Shown in pieces: positions 10,207 to 20,440 of a stretch of 33,537 nt of DNA (position 1 is the stretch's first letter; the number at the start of each line of letters is the position of its first letter). The stretch covers positions 1 to 33,537 of the forward strand of contig JAEOTZ010000060.1 in NCBI GenBank assembly GCA_016839585.1. The letters are read 5' to 3'. The position numbers were made by a program, and so were the translations under genes. The notes beneath the pieces are model-generated. The model ran no database searches and was not told the origin of the DNA. It worked only from the letters and a program-made list of their open reading frames with translations. The stretch is from Promethearchaeota archaeon (lineage in GTDB: Archaea > Asgardarchaeota > Lokiarchaeia > Sigyniarchaeales > SOKP01).

Positions 10207-12612
10207 TTAATTCTTCTTGAAGTATTGAAATAATCCACCAATTAATTGTCCAGTACTTATACCAGCATCACCTGGAGCCACTAGATCATGCTCTAAAAAT
10301 GTATATCCTGCTTGATTAACTACATTTTTAACTGTTTTTGAAAAAGAATAATTATAAGCTACTCCACCTGATAATCCGATTTTTTTAATATTATTTTCTT
10401 TTGCAATTTTAATAGCAATATTGGCAAAAATTTTACCAAATTCAATTTGAAATTTCGCAGCAATATCTTTTCTTTTATTTTTAGAATGTTCTAATAAATC
10501 TAATATATTTAAAACTAATTTTGATGTATTAATAATATAATTTCCATTTTGTCTATAAAATTCAACATTTAGTTTAATTTCCTTCGGATTTCCTCTCGAT
10601 GCTAATCCCTCAAGCCTCATTGCAGGTTCTCCCCTATATGTTTTAATATCCGATGCTCCTAATAAATATGATATTACATCAAATATTCTACCAGTTGAAC
10701 TTGTTAAAGGAATATTTTCTGAAGAAAATTTAGTTTTTCCCATTTCAAATTGTGATAATAAAGCATTCAGTTCAGTTTCCTTATATTCTAAATCATCTGC
10801 TAAGCCTAATTTTTTAAAAATCTTTTGTGCTTCTTGGCTACCAAGATTATTAATTATAATTGAAGCAGCCATTCGAGCAGGATATTTAGTACATCGATCT
10901 CCACCAATCATTGGTTGATATTCTAAATGACCTACTCGTTGATATTTATCATAAGAACATAACAAAATTTCTCCTCCCCAAACATTACCATCATCACCAT
11001 AACCAACACCATCTACACTGATTCCGACAATTTTTTCATCAATTTTTATATTATTTTCAACCATTAAGCTTAATACGTGAGCAAAGTGATGCTGAATTTG
11101 GTACAAATCGACGTTAAATTGCGAAGCGAGCTCATTCGCAAGTTTAGTAGTTATAAAAGCAGGATGTAAATCACACGTTATAAATTCAACTTCAGAATCT
11201 TTTATCTGTAATAGATTTTTCATATGAAGAAGTGAATTTCTTAAAAATTCATATGTTTCAAGGTGAGTTACATTTCCAATATGTTGAGTTGGAAAAATCC
11301 GATTTCTCCTTAAAATAGCTCCAGTAACAGCTAATTCAGGTCCTGTTGAAAGAGCTGCTGGTATTTCTACATTAAAAGGTAAGGGTAAATATTCGGGGAC
11401 ATAACCTCTAGATCTTCTTATTAATTTAACTTTATTATCGTGAATTCTTAAAACACTATCATCAGCTCGTTGAAAGATTGGTCTATTATGAAGAAGAAAT
11501 ACATCTGCAAGATTTTGAAGTTGATTAAAAATCATATCATTTTCAATACCCATTGGAATATTTGATTTATTGCCACTAGTATAAACTAATGGTTTCTCTC
11601 CGATATAATCAAATAACAAATGATGGATTCCTGAATAAGGAAACATAACACCTACATTATTTAAACCCGGAGCAACTTGTTTACTAATACTCGAATTATT
11701 AGAAGAATTTTTTCTCTCTAGTAGAACAATAGGTCGACGAAAAGAGGTCAAAATTTCTCGTTCTTTTTCTGAGATATAAAAGTCCTTTTCAATTAATCTA
11801 AAATTTGGCACCATTAAAGCAAACGGTTTGAATTTCCTTTCTCCTTTTCTTTTTCTAAGCTTTAGAATAATTTCATCATCATCTGCTAAACAAACTAAAT
11901 GAACACCACCTATACCTTTAACTGCTATAATTTCTCCATTATTAATCCTGTTTGATGTTTCTTTTAGAATTTCTTTTATGGAGGCTTGCTCGATTACATT
12001 ACCTGATATATTGTAAAGTTGATAATTTGGACCACATATAGAACAAGCATAAGTTTGAGCGTGAAATCTTCTATTATTGAAATCAGAATATTCTTGAATA
12101 CAGGACTCAGGTTCAGCTTTGTCACAGAAAGGGAAATTTATCATCGTTGTACGTTCTCTGTCATATGGTAACTCTTCTACAGTAGTAAATCGAGGGCCAC
12201 ATACTGCACATGCGATAAATGGATAATTATAATACTTTAATAAATTCTTATTTCTCATATCTTCTAAACAATTATTACAAATAGCGATATCAGGAGGAAG
12301 AGTTAAACTTATTCCTCGTCCTTGTTCACTTTTCTTAATTTCTAAATTACTAAATTTCTTTTTGAAATCTATTTCTTTTACTTTAAAATGCTCAATATAA
12401 GATATTTTGGGTTTATTATTTTTTACTTCTACAATAAAATTTTCAATACTTTTTGATTCACCTTGTAAGATTAATCGAACTCCTGCATTTCCTCGATTAA
12501 GAATATACCCTGTTAAATCGTTATTTCGTGCTATATTAAATAGGAAAGGTCTAAATCCTACCCCTTGAACAATTCCAGTAATCGTTATTTCTACTGTCCT
12601 AATATCATTCAA
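10207..12612 (-). CDS. hypF: Carbamoyltransferase HypF
   Basis: GIVQGVGFRPF acylphosphatase domain, CxxC Zn fingers, CDLHP, QHHFAH, DGVGYG and GDAGISTGQ; TTG start. Confidence 0.97.
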   Translation of the reverse strand: MNDIRTVEITITGIVQGVGFRPFLFNIARNNDLTGYILNRGNAGVRLILQGESKSIENFIVEVKNNKPKISYIEHFKVKEIDFKKKFSNLEIKKSEQGRGISLTLPPDIAICNNCLEDMRNKNLLKYYNYPFIACAVCGPRFTTVEELPYDRERTTMINFPFCDKAEPESCIQEYSDFNNRRFHAQTYACSICGPNYQLYNISGNVIEQASIKEILKETSNRINNGEIIAVKGIGGVHLVCLADDDEIILKLRKRKGERKFKPFALMVPNFRLIEKDFYISEKEREILTSFRRPIVLLERKNSSNNSSISKQVAPGLNNVGVMFPYSGIHHLLFDYIGEKPLVYTSGNKSNIPMGIENDMIFNQLQNLADVFLLHNRPIFQRADDSVLRIHDNKVKLIRRSRGYVPEYLPLPFNVEIPAALSTGPELAVTGAILRRNRIFPTQHIGNVTHLETYEFLRNSLLHMKNLLQIKDSEVEFITCDLHPAFITTKLANELASQFNVDLYQIQHHFAHVLSLMVENNIKIDEKIVGISVDGVGYGDDGNVWGGEILLCSYDKYQRVGHLEYQPMIGGDRCTKYPARMAASIIINNLGSQEAQKIFKKLGLADDLEYKETELNALLSQFEMGKTKFSSENIPLTSSTGRIFDVISYLLGASDIKTYRGEPAMRLEGLASRGNPKEIKLNVEFYRQNGNYIINTSKLVLNILDLLEHSKNKRKDIAAKFQIEFGKIFANIAIKIAKENNIKKIGLSGGVAYNYSFSKTVKNVVNQAGYTFLEHDLVAPGDAGISTGQLIGGLFQYFKKN

Positions 12613-12750: not shown

Positions 12751-13632
12751 ATGATACAAATGAACTCGAAAGTAAATAAATGGGATGTTCCATATCATAA
12801 AGCCTTCTTTAAAACAAGCCATAATTCATATGAGCACTCAATTAGAGAACAATTAAACAAAGGAGTACGAGGGCTCGAATACGATATTCACGATGAAAAA
12901 ATTCAAGAATTGAACAATTTTGAGGTATATCATCTCCAGAATCATTACGACGTAATGCTTAATGTAGATGGAAACCCAAACGATTATTTATTTTCAAATT
13001 GGTTACAAATAATTAAAGAGTGGTCTAATGAACAAAATAATGAACACGCACCAATAACTCTCTTTATCGAATTAAAGGATAGCATTGTTGATTCAAACAA
13101 CAAGCCAGATGAGCTTTATGGAATTAAAAAATTTAATAACGTACTTGTTGAGTCACTCTCTCTGGATAAATTATATACATATAAAAATTTCAGACAAAAC
13201 AATTTTCAATGGCCAACAGTGAGAGAATTAAAAGGGCGAGTAATAATTGTTCTTACAAGTTATTGGGGAGGCTATTGGGCGTCAAGTGAGGGTGGGTTTG
13301 AATCTAGATTGAGATATCTAAAAAACTCTTTAGAAAGTAAGGATGATATTAGCTTCGTTTCATGGATAGAAGAAGATCATGGTGATGAGGTTCAATTTTT
13401 AAAAGATAAAACATATTTTTGGAAATGTAGCCTTGATTATAGTTTTAAAGAATATCAAAAAATAGCTATATCTCAGAAATTAACTAGAGTTGATTTTGAT
13501 AAAATTGTATTTGGAAGGCATGTAAAAACTTATTATTTAAAAAATTTTAAAGCAGGATATCGTTGTAATTTTCCAGTAACAGACTCTTGGGCTGATGAAA
13601 TGTATAATAAATCATTTCCATGGTCTATTTAG
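12751..13632 (+). CDS. PI-PLC-like (PLC-like phosphodiesterase TIM-barrel) protein
   Basis: SHNSY, QLNKGVRGLEYDIH, EVYH, HAPITLFIELKD and WPTVRELKGRVIIV match PI-PLC X-box-type motifs. Confidence 0.75.
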   Translation: MIQMNSKVNKWDVPYHKAFFKTSHNSYEHSIREQLNKGVRGLEYDIHDEKIQELNNFEVYHLQNHYDVMLNVDGNPNDYLFSNWLQIIKEWSNEQNNEHAPITLFIELKDSIVDSNNKPDELYGIKKFNNVLVESLSLDKLYTYKNFRQNNFQWPTVRELKGRVIIVLTSYWGGYWASSEGGFESRLRYLKNSLESKDDISFVSWIEEDHGDEVQFLKDKTYFWKCSLDYSFKEYQKIAISQKLTRVDFDKIVFGRHVKTYYLKNFKAGYRCNFPVTDSWADEMYNKSFPWSI

Positions 13633-14731
13633 GATACTCCTCTTTATAATACTTAAAATAAATACTACATGTCCCTTCCATTGAAACCATACATGGTCCT
13701 ATTGGATTAATTGGAGTACATTCCTTTCTAAACAACTTACATTCATAAGGATATAATTTTCCTATCATAACTAAATGACATGAACATCCTGGAGGAATAT
13801 CTTGTGATTTTTCTATATCGATATCAAATTTCTTGTCCGTATCATATTCCGCATATTCTTTCTTGATTTTTAAACCGCCATCAAGAATACGTCCTATACC
13901 TCTCCAAGGTGAAGAAATCGATTCGAACACATTAGAAATAATTTCTTGTGCCTTTTTGTTCCCTTCTGGTTTTACAACTCGAGAGTATTCATTTAAAGTC
14001 TCATATCTTTTTTCTTTTTTTTGTTTTAAAAGCATTAAAATTGCTACCAATACATCATTCGGCTCAAAACCAGCAATTACATTAGGTACTCTATATGCAT
14101 CTGAGAATAATTTAAAAGGTTTTAAACCAATTATAGTCGAAACATGACCTGGTGATATAAATCCATCAATTTTCAATTGAGATTGAGAAATTAGAAGTTC
14201 TAATGCCGCAGGAATTAATTTATGGGCACAAATTACTGAAAAATTTGAAGGTGGCTTTGATTGAATCTCATATCCGATTAAAGGTACTGTAGTTTCAAAA
14301 CCAATTGCAAAAAAAATGACTTCTTTTTCAGGATTTTCTTTAGCTATTTTTATAGCATCGTGAGGACTATATACTATTCTTATATCTCCACCTTTTGCTT
14401 TTAACTCTGCTAAAGAAATGTTTGTTGCTGGAACCCGAATCATGTCCCCGAAAGTGGTAATTATTGTATCGTCTCTTTTTCCGAGCTCAATGGCTTTATC
14501 AATATCGGCTGCAGGACACACACAAACAGGGCACCCCGGACCAGATAATACCTCAAGTTCTTTAGGTAATAATGATCTTAGACCATACTTTGAAATCGTA
14601 TGTTCGTGTGTTCCACAAACATGCATTATTTTTATGGGTGTATTCAAATCTTTTATAATCCTATTGATGGACTTAACAATCTTTTCTGTAAATATCTTAC
14701 TTTTAAGCAATTCAGTTCCAGGGATTTCCAT
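13625..14731 (-). CDS. hypD: Hydrogenase maturation protein HypD
   Basis: HVCGTHEH, GPGCPVC, GFETT, PGHVS and C-terminal Fe-S Cys (GPCMVSMEGTC); ATG 14731 (TTG 14737 alternative). Confidence 0.97.
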   Translation of the reverse strand: MEIPGTELLKSKIFTEKIVKSINRIIKDLNTPIKIMHVCGTHEHTISKYGLRSLLPKELEVLSGPGCPVCVCPAADIDKAIELGKRDDTIITTFGDMIRVPATNISLAELKAKGGDIRIVYSPHDAIKIAKENPEKEVIFFAIGFETTVPLIGYEIQSKPPSNFSVICAHKLIPAALELLISQSQLKIDGFISPGHVSTIIGLKPFKLFSDAYRVPNVIAGFEPNDVLVAILMLLKQKKEKRYETLNEYSRVVKPEGNKKAQEIISNVFESISSPWRGIGRILDGGLKIKKEYAEYDTDKKFDIDIEKSQDIPPGCSCHLVMIGKLYPYECKLFRKECTPINPIGPCMVSMEGTCSIYFKYYKEEYPK

Positions 14732-14768
14732 AATCAATATTTTTAGTTTAATAAAACTTTTTAATTTA

Positions 14769-15821
14769 TTAACAAATTCGAGGTATTAATTCTCCTAATG
14801 GCATATCTATAAATCGAGTACCTCCAACAATAGTTTTTAATAAAACTTGTTTAGGATTTTCACTTTTAACTTCACCAATAATCTCTGCACCCTTTCCAAT
14901 TTGAGTAGACTTTATTTTTTTTAATATTACCTCAGCGAATTGAGGATCAACTGATAAGAGAGCTCTTCCTTCGGAGGCTATATTGTATGGGTCTAAACCT
15001 AACATATCACATATTGCAGTTACTTGCTTTTTTATAGGAATTTTCTCTTCTTCAATATAGATTCCTACATTTGATTTTTTCGCCCAATCATTTAAATTTC
15101 CAGCAATTCCTCCCCTTGTAGGATCTTTCATTGCATGAATATAATTATTTTTTATTTCAAACCCTAGTATATTATTAATTTCTAAAAGGAAGCCTAAGTC
15201 AGATTTTAAATCTGTAGAAATATTCAAACCTTCACGACTAGCCATTAAAGCAGTACCATGGTCACCAATACTTCCAGTAATAATTATTTTGTCTCCAATT
15301 TTTAGTCCATTATCCAATATTTTTATTTGTTTATCTTTTATTCCAATTCCTGTGGTGGCCATAATTATTTCATTTAAACTTCCATTAGGCATAACTTTTG
15401 TATCTCCAGCAATAATTGCAATATTTGCTTCTTTTGCTTTTAAATTAAACGAATGTATAATTTTTTCTAAAGTATCAAATTTAAAACCTTCTTCTATAAT
15501 AATAACTGATGTAATGGCAATAGGTTCAGCACCCATCATTAATAAATCGTTAACTGTACCACAAACACTTAATGAACCTAAATCTCCTCCTGGAAAAAAT
15601 ATTGGATAAACAGTGTGCCCATCTGTAGTAATTACAATTTCTTGGTTATAATCTTTTAATGGAATCGTAGCACCATCATCCAATTCTTCAACACCTATAC
15701 CATTAGAAATTTTCTTAATAGCAATGTCTTTAATGATAAAATTAATGAGTTCTTCTTGTAAAAACCCACCTGCTCCGTGTGCTAAACGGATAATATTTGA
15801 GCTCTCTTTTTGACTACTCAT
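14769..15821 (-). CDS. hypE: Hydrogenase maturation protein HypE
   Basis: LAHGAGG, FFPGGDLG, GDTKV, DPTRGG and terminal PRIC. Confidence 0.97.
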   Translation of the reverse strand: MSSQKESSNIIRLAHGAGGFLQEELINFIIKDIAIKKISNGIGVEELDDGATIPLKDYNQEIVITTDGHTVYPIFFPGGDLGSLSVCGTVNDLLMMGAEPIAITSVIIIEEGFKFDTLEKIIHSFNLKAKEANIAIIAGDTKVMPNGSLNEIIMATTGIGIKDKQIKILDNGLKIGDKIIITGSIGDHGTALMASREGLNISTDLKSDLGFLLEINNILGFEIKNNYIHAMKDPTRGGIAGNLNDWAKKSNVGIYIEEEKIPIKKQVTAICDMLGLDPYNIASEGRALLSVDPQFAEVILKKIKSTQIGKGAEIIGEVKSENPKQVLLKTIVGGTRFIDMPLGELIPRIC

Positions 15822-16123: not shown

Positions 16124-17449
16124 ATGGCAGTTAAAGTAGCTTTTATGCAATGTTCAGATTGCTGGGGCTGCCACCAATCCCTATTGAATGCTCATTTGGG
16201 ATTATTACCGGTACTCCCAGCGCTTGATATTGTGTATTGGCCAGCTGTAGTCGATTTTAAGCACGACTCGTTGAAAGCAAGACCAGATGGTGATATATTA
16301 GTTGGTTTCGTAGAAGGTAGTTTAAGAACTAACGAAGATGTTGAGAACGCAAAATTAATGAGAGCAAAATGTCAACTCATTATATCATTTGGCAGTTGTT
16401 CATGTTATGGTAATGTACATGGCTTAGCTAACCAATGGGATATACAAAAAGTAATTAATAGGAAATTTGTTGAAACAGAGAGTATTACCAATGAATCTCC
16501 ACATGAACCTAAGGAACATATGCCTGGTTTCACAGAAAAGATTATGCCTTTAGATGAGGTTATTAAGGTTGATGCTTACATCGCAGGATGTCCACCTAAA
16601 CCAGAGGCAATTATCAGTTCTGTGGTTTTTCTATTAGGACAAAAACCACAACCTATGAACGATTTAGCATTCTGCAATGAATGTCCTTTAAATACCGAAG
16701 GATGTTTATTAGATAAAGGAGTAATGTGTTTTGGACCTATTACAAGTTCTGGATGTACATTAAAATGTACAAGCAATGGAGATCCATGTGTAGGTTGTTT
16801 TGGACCATCAAAAACCGTAGCATCAAGGGCAGAGAAATTAAATGGAATGGTAAAAAACCTAAGTACAATTTCTACAGGAAACAAGAAAAATTTATTTGAA
16901 TTTTTAACCTTGTTTTTAAACGTACCATTAATGGCGGGGTTTGATCTCGCAGGAGATGTCTTAAAGCAAATTAAAAAACGAGGTGCCCCTGAAAGTCCTT
17001 TAGCTAACCTTCCACCTACTACAGAAGATATTGCTTCGAGTATAATGGCATACTTAAGAGATAATAGAGATTTCACAGAAATTTCTAATGTTTGTGATAC
17101 ATGTCCGAGAATTATTGGTAGTAAATCACGAATGACTAAAGTGAAGAGAGATTATGAAGGTCTTCCAAATATGGATGATTGCTTAATTGAACAAGGATAC
17201 ATTTGTATGGGACCAGTCACTAAAGCTGGTTGCGGTGGTTTATGCCTTCGAGTTAACGCTCCTTGTAGCGGCTGCTATGGTCAAACTGAATGGGTTGCAG
17301 ATCAAGCAAGCAGATTTGCTGATGTTGTAATTAAAGGCTTTAATGTTGATGTATCTAAAGAAGAATTGCTAAGTCAGGTAAAAGATCATTTAGGAACTTT
17401 TCAAAAGTTTACTTTAGCATCAAATAGAAGTTATAAAGGAGGCGAATAA
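16124..17449 (+). CDS. vhuG: F420-non-reducing [NiFe(Se)] hydrogenase small subunit (VhuG/MvhG), with duplicated C-terminal Fe-S domain
   Basis: CWGC, VEGS, FGSCSCYG and GCPP proximal-cluster motifs; two 8-Cys CxxCP...CxGP...GC...C...PCxGC modules. Confidence 0.92.
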   Translation: MAVKVAFMQCSDCWGCHQSLLNAHLGLLPVLPALDIVYWPAVVDFKHDSLKARPDGDILVGFVEGSLRTNEDVENAKLMRAKCQLIISFGSCSCYGNVHGLANQWDIQKVINRKFVETESITNESPHEPKEHMPGFTEKIMPLDEVIKVDAYIAGCPPKPEAIISSVVFLLGQKPQPMNDLAFCNECPLNTEGCLLDKGVMCFGPITSSGCTLKCTSNGDPCVGCFGPSKTVASRAEKLNGMVKNLSTISTGNKKNLFEFLTLFLNVPLMAGFDLAGDVLKQIKKRGAPESPLANLPPTTEDIASSIMAYLRDNRDFTEISNVCDTCPRIIGSKSRMTKVKRDYEGLPNMDDCLIEQGYICMGPVTKAGCGGLCLRVNAPCSGCYGQTEWVADQASRFADVVIKGFNVDVSKEELLSQVKDHLGTFQKFTLASNRSYKGGE

Positions 17450-17454
17450 AAAAA

Positions 17455-18759
17455 ATGGTAAAAGAAATAGTAGTTGAACCAGTCACTCGATTAGAGGGAC
17501 ATGGAGGTTTAAGAATTGTCTTGGGAGATGATGGAAAGGTTAAAGATGCGCAATTTAATATTACTTCGACAAGATTCTTTGAGAAGTTCTGTGAGGGCAG
17601 ATATGCAGAACACGTGCCTCGTATTACACCTAGAATTTGTGGTATTTGTCCAATTCCTCACCATTTAACACCTACAAAAGCAGTAGAAGATGCCTGGGGC
17701 GTTGAAATTCCTGAGCCAGCAAGAAAATTAAGAATATTATTACAAAATGCTAAACAATACTCTTCTCATGTATTACACTTTTATGCTTTGGCAGCACCTG
17801 ATTTCTTACTTGGACCTTTCGCAGACCCTGCATTAAGAAATGTCGTCCATGTTATCAATAAGATGCCTGATGTTGGAGCAATGGCTCTGAAAATGATGGA
17901 TTTTGGACAAAAATTATGTGCTGAGATTGGTGGTAAATCAGTTCATCCTATTTCTGCAATTGTCGGTGGAATGAAAAAACCAATGGATGAAGATGCAAGA
18001 GATAAATTTCTTAAACAAGTTGGTGAACAGATAGAATTTACAAAGAAGACAGTAGAAATTGGCTTAAAAGTAGTAGAAGATTATTGGGACGTGGTAGCAA
18101 ACGTTGCTGTCGTACCTACATATTATCTTGGGATGACAAAGAATGGAGTACATGACATTTATGAAGGAGATATAAGAATTGTTACACCTAACGGTGAGAA
18201 AAAGGATTTTGATATCCATAAATATTTGGATGTACTTGGCGAACATATTCCAGAACACTCTTATGCCACTCACATGTATTATAAGCCAGCAGGATATCCC
18301 GATGGGATATATCGAGCAAATTGTTTAGCAATGATTAATGCTGCAGATAAAATGGCAACACCACTAGCAGATGAGGCATTAAAAGCCTTTAGAGATAAAA
18401 CAGGACCAATTTCCCATCACACATTTGCGTATCATTGGGCACGATTAATTGAAACTGTAGAAGCAATTGAAATAATTGCAACGTTACTTAAGGACCCTGA
18501 CGTTGTAAATCCTGATTGTAAGACTTTAGATGTAGAGCCGAGGGAAGGAAATGGTGTAGGTGTAACAGAAGCCCCAAGAGGTCTATTGTTATACAATATC
18601 TGGTCTGATGCTGCTGGAATCTGTAAAAAATTAAATCTATTAGTAGCAACTAATCATAATATTGCAGGAATAGAAAAAACTCTTATGCACACCGCAAAAC
18701 AGGTATTTGAAGATAAGGCTTTAGACGGATTAAAATTACCAGACCCATGGATTAAATAA
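17455..18759 (+). CDS. vhuA: F420-non-reducing hydrogenase large subunit, split type (VhuA)
   Basis: PVTRLEGHG, RFFEKF, PRICGICPIPH (L1) and EAPRG; ends at PDPWIK with no DPCxxCxxH (L2) motif. Confidence 0.95.
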   Translation: MVKEIVVEPVTRLEGHGGLRIVLGDDGKVKDAQFNITSTRFFEKFCEGRYAEHVPRITPRICGICPIPHHLTPTKAVEDAWGVEIPEPARKLRILLQNAKQYSSHVLHFYALAAPDFLLGPFADPALRNVVHVINKMPDVGAMALKMMDFGQKLCAEIGGKSVHPISAIVGGMKKPMDEDARDKFLKQVGEQIEFTKKTVEIGLKVVEDYWDVVANVAVVPTYYLGMTKNGVHDIYEGDIRIVTPNGEKKDFDIHKYLDVLGEHIPEHSYATHMYYKPAGYPDGIYRANCLAMINAADKMATPLADEALKAFRDKTGPISHHTFAYHWARLIETVEAIEIIATLLKDPDVVNPDCKTLDVEPREGNGVGVTEAPRGLLLYNIWSDAAGICKKLNLLVATNHNIAGIEKTLMHTAKQVFEDKALDGLKLPDPWIK

Positions 18760-18798
18760 ATTTATTGAAAATAAAATATCAAAAGCGTGAACAAAAAA

Positions 18799-18903
18799 AT
18801 GAGTGATATACCAGAAGGAATGGTAAATCTCTTAGAAATGGTAGTCCGCTGTTTCGATTGCTGACTATCATGTGCCGCACACATCACGGTTGTTGATGAG
18901 TAA
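18799..18903 (+). CDS. vhuU: Selenoprotein VhuU: MSDIPEGMVNLLEMVVRCFDC-U-LSCAAHITVVDE (TGA at 18862-18864 read as Sec)
   Basis: Supplies the L2 motif missing from VhuA, with TGA at the Ni-ligand position (DxUxxCxxH); directly downstream of vhuA; SECIS-like hairpin follows. Absent from the ORF track. Confidence 0.93.
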
Positions 18904-18933
18904 GGCACTGAGATTTACTCTCGAAAATTAAAC

Positions 18934-19005
18934 GTAGGCTTAGGATGAATATCCAATAAAAATAATAGATTGGATATAACTGCCCACGCAAGGGTTAAAG
19001 CCTAC
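18934..19005 (+). promoter_or_regulatory. SECIS-like RNA structure for vhuU
   Basis: GTAGGCTT (18934-41) pairs with AAGCCTAC (18998-19005); ATGA at 18945-48; ATATCCAAT (18949-57) pairs with ATTGGATAT (18969-77); the apical loop begins AAAAA. Confidence 0.75.
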
Positions 19006-19033: not shown

Positions 19034-19549
19034 GTGAAAAAAATGAGTATAGATTTCGAATTTCGAAAATTAGTAATGGATTTTCATCAAGGGTCTGATT
19101 TAATCAAATATTGTTATCAATGTAGCCGTTGTGCAGATAATTGCCCTGTTACAAAAGTATCAGCTGATTTCTATGGAACTACTGGATATAATCCAAGAAA
19201 TAATATCTTAAATGCGTTATTAGGTTATAAGGATCTGATATTTACAGAAGATGAATTGATAATTTGGGGTTGTACGGTATGTGATACATGTGATGAGGTA
19301 TGTCCACAAGACATTGAGTTAACAGAGATATTTACGTTCTTAAAGAATCAATCTATTGAGCAAGGGAAAGGACCAGAGTTTATATATTCTCAAGCAAAGG
19401 CGATATTTGATAGTGCTAAAGCAATCCCTTCACAACCTGCGATTGAGAGGAGAAGAGAACAGATGGGATTACCTGCAATTGTTATACCTGATGTCAATGA
19501 GTTGCAAACATTATTAAAAAATATTGGAGCAGCCAAAAAATTAAAATAA
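19034..19549 (+). CDS. hdrC: Heterodisulfide reductase subunit C
   Basis: CYQCSRCADNCP and CTVCDTCDEVCP 2x[4Fe-4S] motifs; AGGAG upstream; start GTG 19034 or ATG 19043; adjacent to hdrB. Confidence 0.92.
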   Translation: MKKMSIDFEFRKLVMDFHQGSDLIKYCYQCSRCADNCPVTKVSADFYGTTGYNPRNNILNALLGYKDLIFTEDELIIWGCTVCDTCDEVCPQDIELTEIFTFLKNQSIEQGKGPEFIYSQAKAIFDSAKAIPSQPAIERRREQMGLPAIVIPDVNELQTLLKNIGAAKKLK

Positions 19550-19567: not shown

Positions 19568-20440
19568 ATGACAGAATTTAAAATGTTTGAAGGATGTACG
19601 ATTGGTAATAGAATTCCTTTCATAGAAGCAGCATCTAGAAAAGTTTTTGAAAAGGTTGGGATTGAAACTTCCCAAGCAGCATTCTCATGCTGCCCAGATC
19701 CTACTGGAATGAAAAGTTTTGATAACAATGCGTGGTTAACCATCGGTGCTATGAATTTATGTTTAGCTGAAGCAGAGGGAAAAGATATAATCTCATTATG
19801 TAACGGTTGCACCAATACTTTACGAGGTGTACAACATCAATTAAAACACGATTCTTTGAAAAAAGAAAAAGTCAATAAAGAATTAGCCAAAATCGGTAAA
19901 GAATTTAAAGGTACAATTGATGTTAAGCACTTTGTAGATGTATTACAAGAGCACCTTGATAAAGTCAAAGGTTCCATTACAAAACCATTAAATGGTTTAA
20001 AAGTTGCTTGTCATCCTGGGTGTCATTACATGCGACCAGCAGAGTGGATGGAATCTGATGATCCTATGAGACCAGAAACGTTAAAAAAGCTTGTGGCAGC
20101 AAGTGGAGCGACTGTTGTGGATTATGATGAGTTAGTTTTATGTTGTGGTTCTGCTGTGACAAATGCATATGAAGAACATGGTCTAGCAAATCTTAAAAAT
20201 AAATTAGATAGTATAAAAAATGCAGGAGCAGATATTATCTGTGTAAATTGTCCAGCTTGCTTTCAACAATTTGATACTAGACAACGCGATTTATCTAAGA
20301 AGTATGAAAAAGAGTACGATATTCCAGTATTATATATAACTGAGCTATATGCTTTAGCTATGGGATATAGTGCTGATGAGATTGGCTTAAAATTTCATAG
20401 AACCCGCTTGAAATCCATTTTAGAAAAATATGGTTTGTAA
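19568..20440 (+). CDS. hdrB: Heterodisulfide reductase subunit B
   Basis: Two CCG domains: GC...SCCP...CNGC and HPGCH...CCGS...CPAC, plus QFD. Confidence 0.95.
   Translation: MTEFKMFEGCTIGNRIPFIEAASRKVFEKVGIETSQAAFSCCPDPTGMKSFDNNAWLTIGAMNLCLAEAEGKDIISLCNGCTNTLRGVQHQLKHDSLKKEKVNKELAKIGKEFKGTIDVKHFVDVLQEHLDKVKGSITKPLNGLKVACHPGCHYMRPAEWMESDDPMRPETLKKLVAASGATVVDYDELVLCCGSAVTNAYEEHGLANLKNKLDSIKNAGADIICVNCPACFQQFDTRQRDLSKKYEKEYDIPVLYITELYALAMGYSADEIGLKFHRTRLKSILEKYGL

Follow-up and report, generated by a model that had tools for sequence, protein, structure and literature searches.

Five genes of the window, i.e., of the whole stretch of 33,537 nucleotides that was analyzed, follow one another head to tail on the forward strand and, judging from this arrangement, are probably transcribed as one mRNA: vhuG (16124..17449), vhuA (17455..18759), vhuU (18799..18903), an hdrC-like gene (19034..19549), and an hdrB-like gene (19568..20440). 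VhuG, of 441 amino acids, is the small subunit (Pfam Oxidored_q6, E 5e-23), VhuA the large subunit; the hdrC-like gene encodes a 4Fe-4S dicluster subunit (Fer4_8 and related Pfam families) and the hdrB-like gene a protein with two CCG domains (Pfam CCG, E 8e-27, and HdrB-like_C). Divergent from vhuG, three maturation genes for the NiFe(CN)2CO cofactor are located on the reverse strand, i.e., hypE (14769-15821; Pfam AIRS/AIRS_C), hypD (13625-14737; HypD, E 4e-145), and hypF (10207-12612; HypF domains). VhuG, VhuA, HdrC, and HdrB are thus the parts of a group 3c Mvh/Vhu-Hdr system encoded in the window, VhuD and HdrA being encoded on other contigs. The short frame from 18799 to 18903 very probably represents vhuU from an Asgard archaeon of the Lokiarchaeia type, encoding the detached C-terminus of the large subunit of a group 3c (Mvh/Vhu-type) [NiFeSe] hydrogenase.

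VhuU has been known for decades as a split-off selenopeptide of Methanococcales. The VhuA protein of the window comprises 434 amino acids, contains the L1 motif (PRICGICP), and ends in ...LKLPDPWIK; an L2 motif (CxxCxxH) was looked for near its end and is absent, and the Pfam family NiFeSe_Hases covers only the N-terminal part. Its best match among all PDB chains is 9sfi_g, the split VhuA (418 amino acids) of M. maripaludis (E 3e-123), residues 4 to 418 being aligned to residues 3 to 417 of that chain; 9SFI is the VhuADGU-Hdr-Fwd structure of Methanococcus maripaludis (PMC13518236). The unsplit MvhA chains in the PDB (472 to 475 amino acids) are matched by VhuA just to their residues 407 to 419. 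The end of VhuA corresponds approximately to residue 418 of unsplit MvhA, beyond which about 55 MvhA residues remain.

The ATG of vhuU at 18799 follows the stop codon of vhuA at a spacing of exactly 39 nt. Its frame reads MSDIPEGMVNLLEMVVRCFDC-UGA-LSCAAHITVVDE-TAA and, with TGA translated as U, yields the 34-residue peptide MSDIPEGMVNLLEMVVRCFDCULSCAAHITVVDE, which includes the L2 ligands in the order D-C-U-L-S-C-A-A-H, followed by a six-residue extension. When this peptide was compared with the PDB, MvhA C-termini and chain 9sfi_M were matched with E values of 6e-5 to 7e-4, residues 4 to 29 aligning with residues 2 to 27 of 9sfi_M and residues 424 to 451 of MvhA. The former chain is a 27-residue VhuU containing L-R-A-Y-D-P-X-Y-S-C-A-A-H (X = Sec), for which the MvhA counterpart is R-A-Y-D-P-C-L-S-C-A-T-H. 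The UGA at codon 22 (18862..18864) is aligned to the Sec of 9sfi_M and to the Cys of the DPC motif of MvhA. According to the alignments to 9SFI and MvhA, VhuA plus VhuU is colinear with MvhA, with the same split point as in Methanococcales. These results agree with the first-pass annotation, which had described a VhuA with RICGIC and without L2, a short TGA-containing frame 39 nt 3′ of it (exact on retranslation), a TGA at a Ni ligand, and a Methanococcales-like split into VhuA and VhuU. A DNA pattern corresponding to R-x-[FY]-D-x-U-x-x-C-A-x-H was furthermore searched in 400 genomes of the phylum and in a control read backwards. It occurs once in the present genome, in 145 of the 400 phylum genomes, and not at all in the control, and TGA is found at the Sec codon in each of the matches listed from the 145 motif-bearing genomes. 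The PDB matches and the absence of the pattern from the control argue that the vhuU frame is not a chance product. An antisense open reading frame at 18762-18908 (reverse strand, 48 amino acids) was rejected, as the wobble pattern of conservation matches the forward frame.

The spacer between vhuU and hdrC contains a candidate selenocysteine insertion element of the lokiSECIS type (18945..18979, forward strand), located 81 nt downstream of the UGA and 41 nt after the TAA. As defined by Mariotti 2016 (PMC4989117), a lokiSECIS carries AUGA directly 5′ of a 9-bp stem with an 11-nt loop, in which an A-rich pentamer comes first and (A)G last; GA follows the stem, or AA in the case of VhuU. All of these features, including the VhuU-specific AA, are present in 18945-18979: AUGA at 18945-48, a perfect stem of 9 bp formed by 18949-57 and 18969-77 (strands AUAUCCAAU/AUUGGAUAU), an apical loop of 11 nt at 18958-68 (AAAAAUAAUAG) that starts with AAAAA and ends with AG, and AA at 18978-79. 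The minimum free energy fold of 18945-18977 exactly reproduces the AUGA, the 9-bp stem, and the 11-nt loop. A scan of the window with Rfam gave no match to a SECIS family, and the element was identified via the published description instead. When the 3.45-Mb genome was scanned for AUGA + 9 bp + 11 nt + [GA]A, seven perfect matches were obtained, six of them with an A-rich loop, versus two in the reversed-sequence control. Among 66 distinct VhuU SECIS sequences aligned and evaluated with MAFFT/RNAalifold, six of eight predicted pairs show compensatory double changes; this count was used in place of a fixed-register tally, which is blurred by indels of 1 to 2 nt. Just 3′ of the element, at 18980-18995, lies a G+C-rich hairpin, CCC-N6-GGG (within ACUGCCC...GGG), which is conserved in most relatives; it may form a lower helix belonging to the SECIS or else act as a processing or termination signal ahead of hdrC.

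For comparison, 80 loci from Promethearchaeota (Lokiarchaeial) metagenome-assembled genomes (MAGs) with VhuA proteins 84 to 93% identical were collected; codons were tallied in 77 sequences, i.e., the window and the 76 related loci reaching far enough. With respect to the end of the frame, the present genome differs from all others: codon 35 (18901..18903) is a TAA stop here alone, whereas in the 76 related loci it is a sense codon (D/E/N/R/S/K). In the closest relative, L022, this codon is GAA, a single G-to-T change away from TAA. The frames of the relatives continue for 14 codons, G-x-E-I-Y-S-R-x-L-N-V-G-L-G, which are conserved at the protein level with synonymous variation, and in most related loci the stop codon is the UGA contained in the AUGA of the SECIS itself, a feature noted for VhuU.1 by Mariotti 2016 (PMC4989117). 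In the window, a remnant of this ancestral C-terminal extension (GTEIYSRKLNVGLG + TGA, 18904..18948, forward strand) is still intact and in frame; if the TAA is real, it is now untranslated. The extension after His28 thus comprises 6 residues here versus 21 in the relatives, and a gene for a HycI-family protease is present in the genome. The first-pass annotation had placed the frame at 18799-18903, and the coordinates are exact; the truncation by the TAA relative to all 76 relatives had been missed.

These data raise the question of whether vhuU, while genuine, is damaged, such that a real TAA removes 15 conserved residues from the extension, compromises Ni insertion or proteolytic maturation, and leaves the sole Vhu enzyme impaired or on its way to being lost. 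We regard this as unlikely, yet it has several points in its favor: the TAA is unique among the 77 loci, the lost codons 36 to 49 are conserved at the amino acid level in relatives, the genome possesses a single vhuA copy, and the remnant is perfectly in frame, suggesting a recent event. On the other hand, the rest of the operon and the SECIS are intact, six residues remain after the cleavage-site His, and the C-terminal peptide is sometimes dispensable; it is absent from some hydrogenase groups, and the membrane-bound hydrogenase MBH of R. eutropha is still matured in its absence, though with a somewhat reduced yield (PMC12134894). Since some enzymes depend on this peptide more than others, a loss of function was not deduced from the TAA. 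The TAA itself may be a single-base assembly error or a minority variant, or else maturation may be affected. A search of the deposited contigs found no identical VhuA on another contig, and metagenome contigs scanned for the exact sequence flanking the TAA, the variable base being given as N, contained no match.

Our preferred reading, an intact vhuU whose UGA is decoded as Sec, is supported by the same set of loci. Codon 22 is TGA in 77 of 77 sequences and a Cys codon (TGC or TGT) in none, relatives with TGC/TGT at 18862-18864 having been proposed beforehand as a check. Downstream of the UGA, the residues L-S-C-A-A-H-I-T-V-V are almost invariant across the 77 loci, while each of them is encoded by two to four synonymous codons (e.g., TCG/TCA/TCT and GCC/GCT/GCA/GCG), and codons 23 to 34 as a whole are kept at the protein level with two to four synonymous codons each. 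Protein invariance combined with synonymous variation indicates that translation continues past the UGA.

The genome also encodes the components for decoding UGA as Sec, another point that the first-pass annotation had suggested examining. The gene for SepSecS was detected with 489 bits and lies directly beside that for tRNA-Sec, which has a UCA anticodon and a 31-nt intron in the T-loop. The Rfam covariance model matched this tRNA over its full length with 34.6 bits versus a curated cut-off of 47, a shortfall attributed to the intron, and ARAGORN did not call it; the same 31-nt T-loop intron has been reported for tRNA-Sec of Lokiarchaeota (Mariotti 2016, PMC4989117). EFsec/SelB (244 bits) is encoded 3 kb from the tRNA-Sec/SepSecS genes. 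A full-length PSTK-like gene (E 2e-42) reached 146 bits versus a curated cut-off of 290, which is ascribed to divergence, and two SelD/SPS genes are arranged in tandem, each with one in-frame TGA. On the basis of these gene predictions, the Sec machinery (tRNA-Sec, PSTK, SepSecS, EFsec, and SPS) is complete in the genome. Further selenoprotein genes became apparent in a SECIS scan allowing one stem mismatch, with one lokiSECIS behind each of four HdrA-VhuD (MvhD) pairs (contigs C45, ~34027-36520; C47, ~148587-151085; C59, ~33880-37763, reverse strand; and C79, reverse strand, ~46909). In each pair, HdrA contains two to three and VhuD two in-frame TGAs at known Sec/Cys positions. Two more SECIS-like elements, C31:25965 and C60:22053, are likewise preceded by short frames containing TGA. 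Contig C59 additionally carries, at 48561-49793 on the forward strand, a 436-codon open frame for a second, distant [NiFe] large-subunit homologue with 24% identity to VhuA.

Three independent lines of evidence, i.e., the comparative data, the SECIS, and the Sec machinery, therefore support the predicted recoding of UGA 18862-18864 as Sec, by which the peptide would make the group 3c hydrogenase a [NiFeSe] enzyme, as proposed at the outset. It would be very surprising if the UGA were instead a true stop, leaving VhuA truncated and inactive and the short frame a decaying remnant of its C-terminus. Other frames of this genome do end in TGA, and a gene caller would terminate the vhuU frame at this codon, but such a remnant is hard to reconcile with an almost invariant LSCAAHITVV whose third codon positions are free to vary, with a conserved and covarying SECIS, with the Sec machinery and the other selenoprotein genes, and with the solved Methanococcus structure, in which the same split architecture works. 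A global reassignment of TGA was rejected, since TGA terminates 168 of the 1359 long frames in the genome as an ordinary stop. The notion that TGA, one base away from TGC/TGT, results from faulty sequencing or from a general change of the code, with Cys as the actual residue as in a Vhc/Mvh-type [NiFe] enzyme, is the least credible of all, given TGA in all 77 independent assemblies and in the matches listed from 145 genomes, the absence of a global reassignment, and the dedicated tRNA-Sec.

With UGA read as Sec, the following mechanism can be proposed. A ribosome reaching the UGA at codon 22 of vhuU would not terminate; rather, the kink-turn-type lokiSECIS 81 nt downstream would recruit EFsec and Sec-tRNA(Sec), and Sec would be inserted, a step suggested by homology, conservation, and the machinery present. 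Translation would stop at the UAA 13 codons past the UGA. VhuU would then dock on VhuA and supply Sec22 as terminal Ni ligand and Cys25 as bridging ligand, which together with the two L1 Cys residues of VhuA would complete the four-ligand site. The metal center would be loaded by HypC-F/HypAB, and cleavage after His28 is expected from the HycI-family protease, whose gene lies in another part of the genome. Partners of VhuAGU would be the Sec-containing VhuD/HdrA pairs from the other contigs and the neighboring HdrBC; by flavin-based electron bifurcation, this assembly could link H2 with ferredoxin and an acceptor of the heterodisulfide type, or operate in reverse with release of H2. Flavin-based electron bifurcation with H2, ferredoxin, and a disulfide has been proposed for Asgard group 3c hydrogenases (PMC11291895). 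Unless the 34-codon vhuU is recognized, the main H2-handling enzyme of this genome looks truncated and dead, and metabolic reconstructions of Lokiarchaeia therefore depend on its correct reading.

The first-pass annotation also stated that VhuU selenoproteins of Lokiarchaeota had already been reported, and the literature confirms this. The Lokiarchaeota VhuU and its SECIS were described in 2016 (Mariotti, PMC4989117); a VhuU-type protein was found in 68.3% of the Sec-using Asgard archaea, with the AUGA_AA core being noted (Huang 2024, PMC11227280), and a VhuU of about 50 amino acids is listed among the Asgard selenoproteins (Valentin-Alvarado 2024, PMC11291895). Like the published Asgard cases, the present locus comprises a gene for a small peptide with one Sec, a SECIS with AUGA, 9 bp, 11 nt, and AA, and an intron-bearing tRNA-Sec in the genome, and, as in the published HdrA-VhuD pairs, one SECIS is common to each pair. 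In contrast to published and related Asgard vhuU genes, which have about 50 to 55 codons and are usually terminated by the UGA within AUGA, the TAA occurs 15 codons earlier here. This vhuU is one more copy of an already described gene family and recoding signal; as publications already cover the family along with its SECIS and distribution, one more confirmed copy adds little beyond annotation.

In comparison with VhuA/VhuU of Methanococcales (M. voltae and M. maripaludis; 9SFI, PMC13518236), the split is the same, VhuA having 434 amino acids here versus 418, and the VhuU peptides align residue for residue with Sec at the same ligand position. Differences concern the sequence before the Sec (R-C-F-D-C-U here versus R-A-Y-D-P-U in Methanococcus), the SECIS, which is of the kink-turn type here and of the GAA_A-bulge archaeal type in Methanococcales (PMC4989117, PMC11227280), an extra Fe-S-like insert in VhuG, and the host, which is not a methanogen. 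With the unsplit MvhA of the MvhADG-HdrABC complex of Methanothermococcus thermolithotrophicus (5ODC) and relatives, the system has L1, L2, and the hdrCB neighborhood in common, whereas MvhA is one polypeptide with Cys in a canonical DPC and the counterpart here is split, with Sec in DCU. The periplasmic [NiFeSe] enzymes of Desulfovibrio and Desulfomicrobium (2WPN, 1CC1) also have Sec in place of the same terminal Ni-ligand Cys; unlike the present enzyme, they belong to group 1, have an unsplit large subunit, and use a bacterial in-frame SECIS, and VhuA resembles them in sequence only over the N-terminal ~175 residues.

The alignment to 9sfi_M and MvhA further revealed that the L2 segment, C-F-D-C-U, is noncanonical, with Cys21 at the Pro position of DPC/DPU and Cys18 at an Ala position; the Pro of the canonical L2, D-P-C/U-x-x-C-x-x-H, is thus missing from this VhuU. 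Cys precedes Sec in almost all of the Asgard matches listed, the exceptions having Pro (genomes G131 and G132) or Phe (G220, G279, and G281), and no discussion of a Cys for Pro next to Sec was found in the Asgard VhuU/hydrogenase literature cited here. It is tempting to regard Asgard VhuU as a distinct [NiFeSe] active-site variant (C-x-x-C-U) and, at the same time, the present genome as a natural experiment on the maturation peptide; that both hold together appears unlikely to us. As a speculation, a reversible selenenylsulfide bond within the Cys-Sec dyad might serve to gate or protect the active site. If the combined proposal were true, then in the TAA-bearing genome 15 of 21 conserved residues of the maturation peptide would be dispensable or the enzyme would be in the process of being lost. 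For hydrogenase biochemistry, the Cys for Pro beside Sec and the shortened maturation peptide provide leads, albeit modest ones.

A further peculiarity concerns the small subunit. VhuG has 441 amino acids, compared with 288 to 308 in solved MvhG/VhuG proteins, owing to an insert of about 130 residues (residues ~183-320). VhuG matches MvhG (PDB 5odc_E, E 2e-55) over residues 3-189 and again over 321-433, and residues 183-189 (F-C-N-E-C-P-L) and 321-329 (N-V-C-D-T-C-P-R) align to one and the same CxxC of MvhG. Within the insert, the Cys residues are spaced as in the C-terminal Fe-S domain, and VhuG of L022 is similarly long (466 amino acids). From its sequence, the insert looks like a tandem duplication, through which the electron relay could gain further Fe-S clusters.

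Other observations relate to the gene neighborhood and its distribution. The interval between hypF and hypD carries, on the other strand (12751-13632, forward), a PI-PLC-like gene with a phosphoinositide phospholipase C X-domain, a eukaryote-flavored family in an odd location among hyp genes. In some relatives, a second gene order occurs, vhuG-vhuA-hdrC-hdrB-vhuU, with vhuU and its SECIS located ~1.5 kb from vhuA (L022:3862-5544; also L025, L029, L044, L047, L054, L062, L067, L084, and L092), and some MAGs contain both arrangements, e.g., SDNW01 with L025 and L036. Finally, Lokiarchaeial vhuA-vhuU genes (85 to 91% identical) were found on contigs L027 (DATKTW010000156.1), L085 (JAHWGK010000121.1), L026, L060, L062, and L083, which bear names such as Nanopelagicaceae bacterium, Thermoplasmata, and Odin-, Thor-, Hod-, and Hermodarchaeota; these six contigs are probably misbinned or mislabeled.
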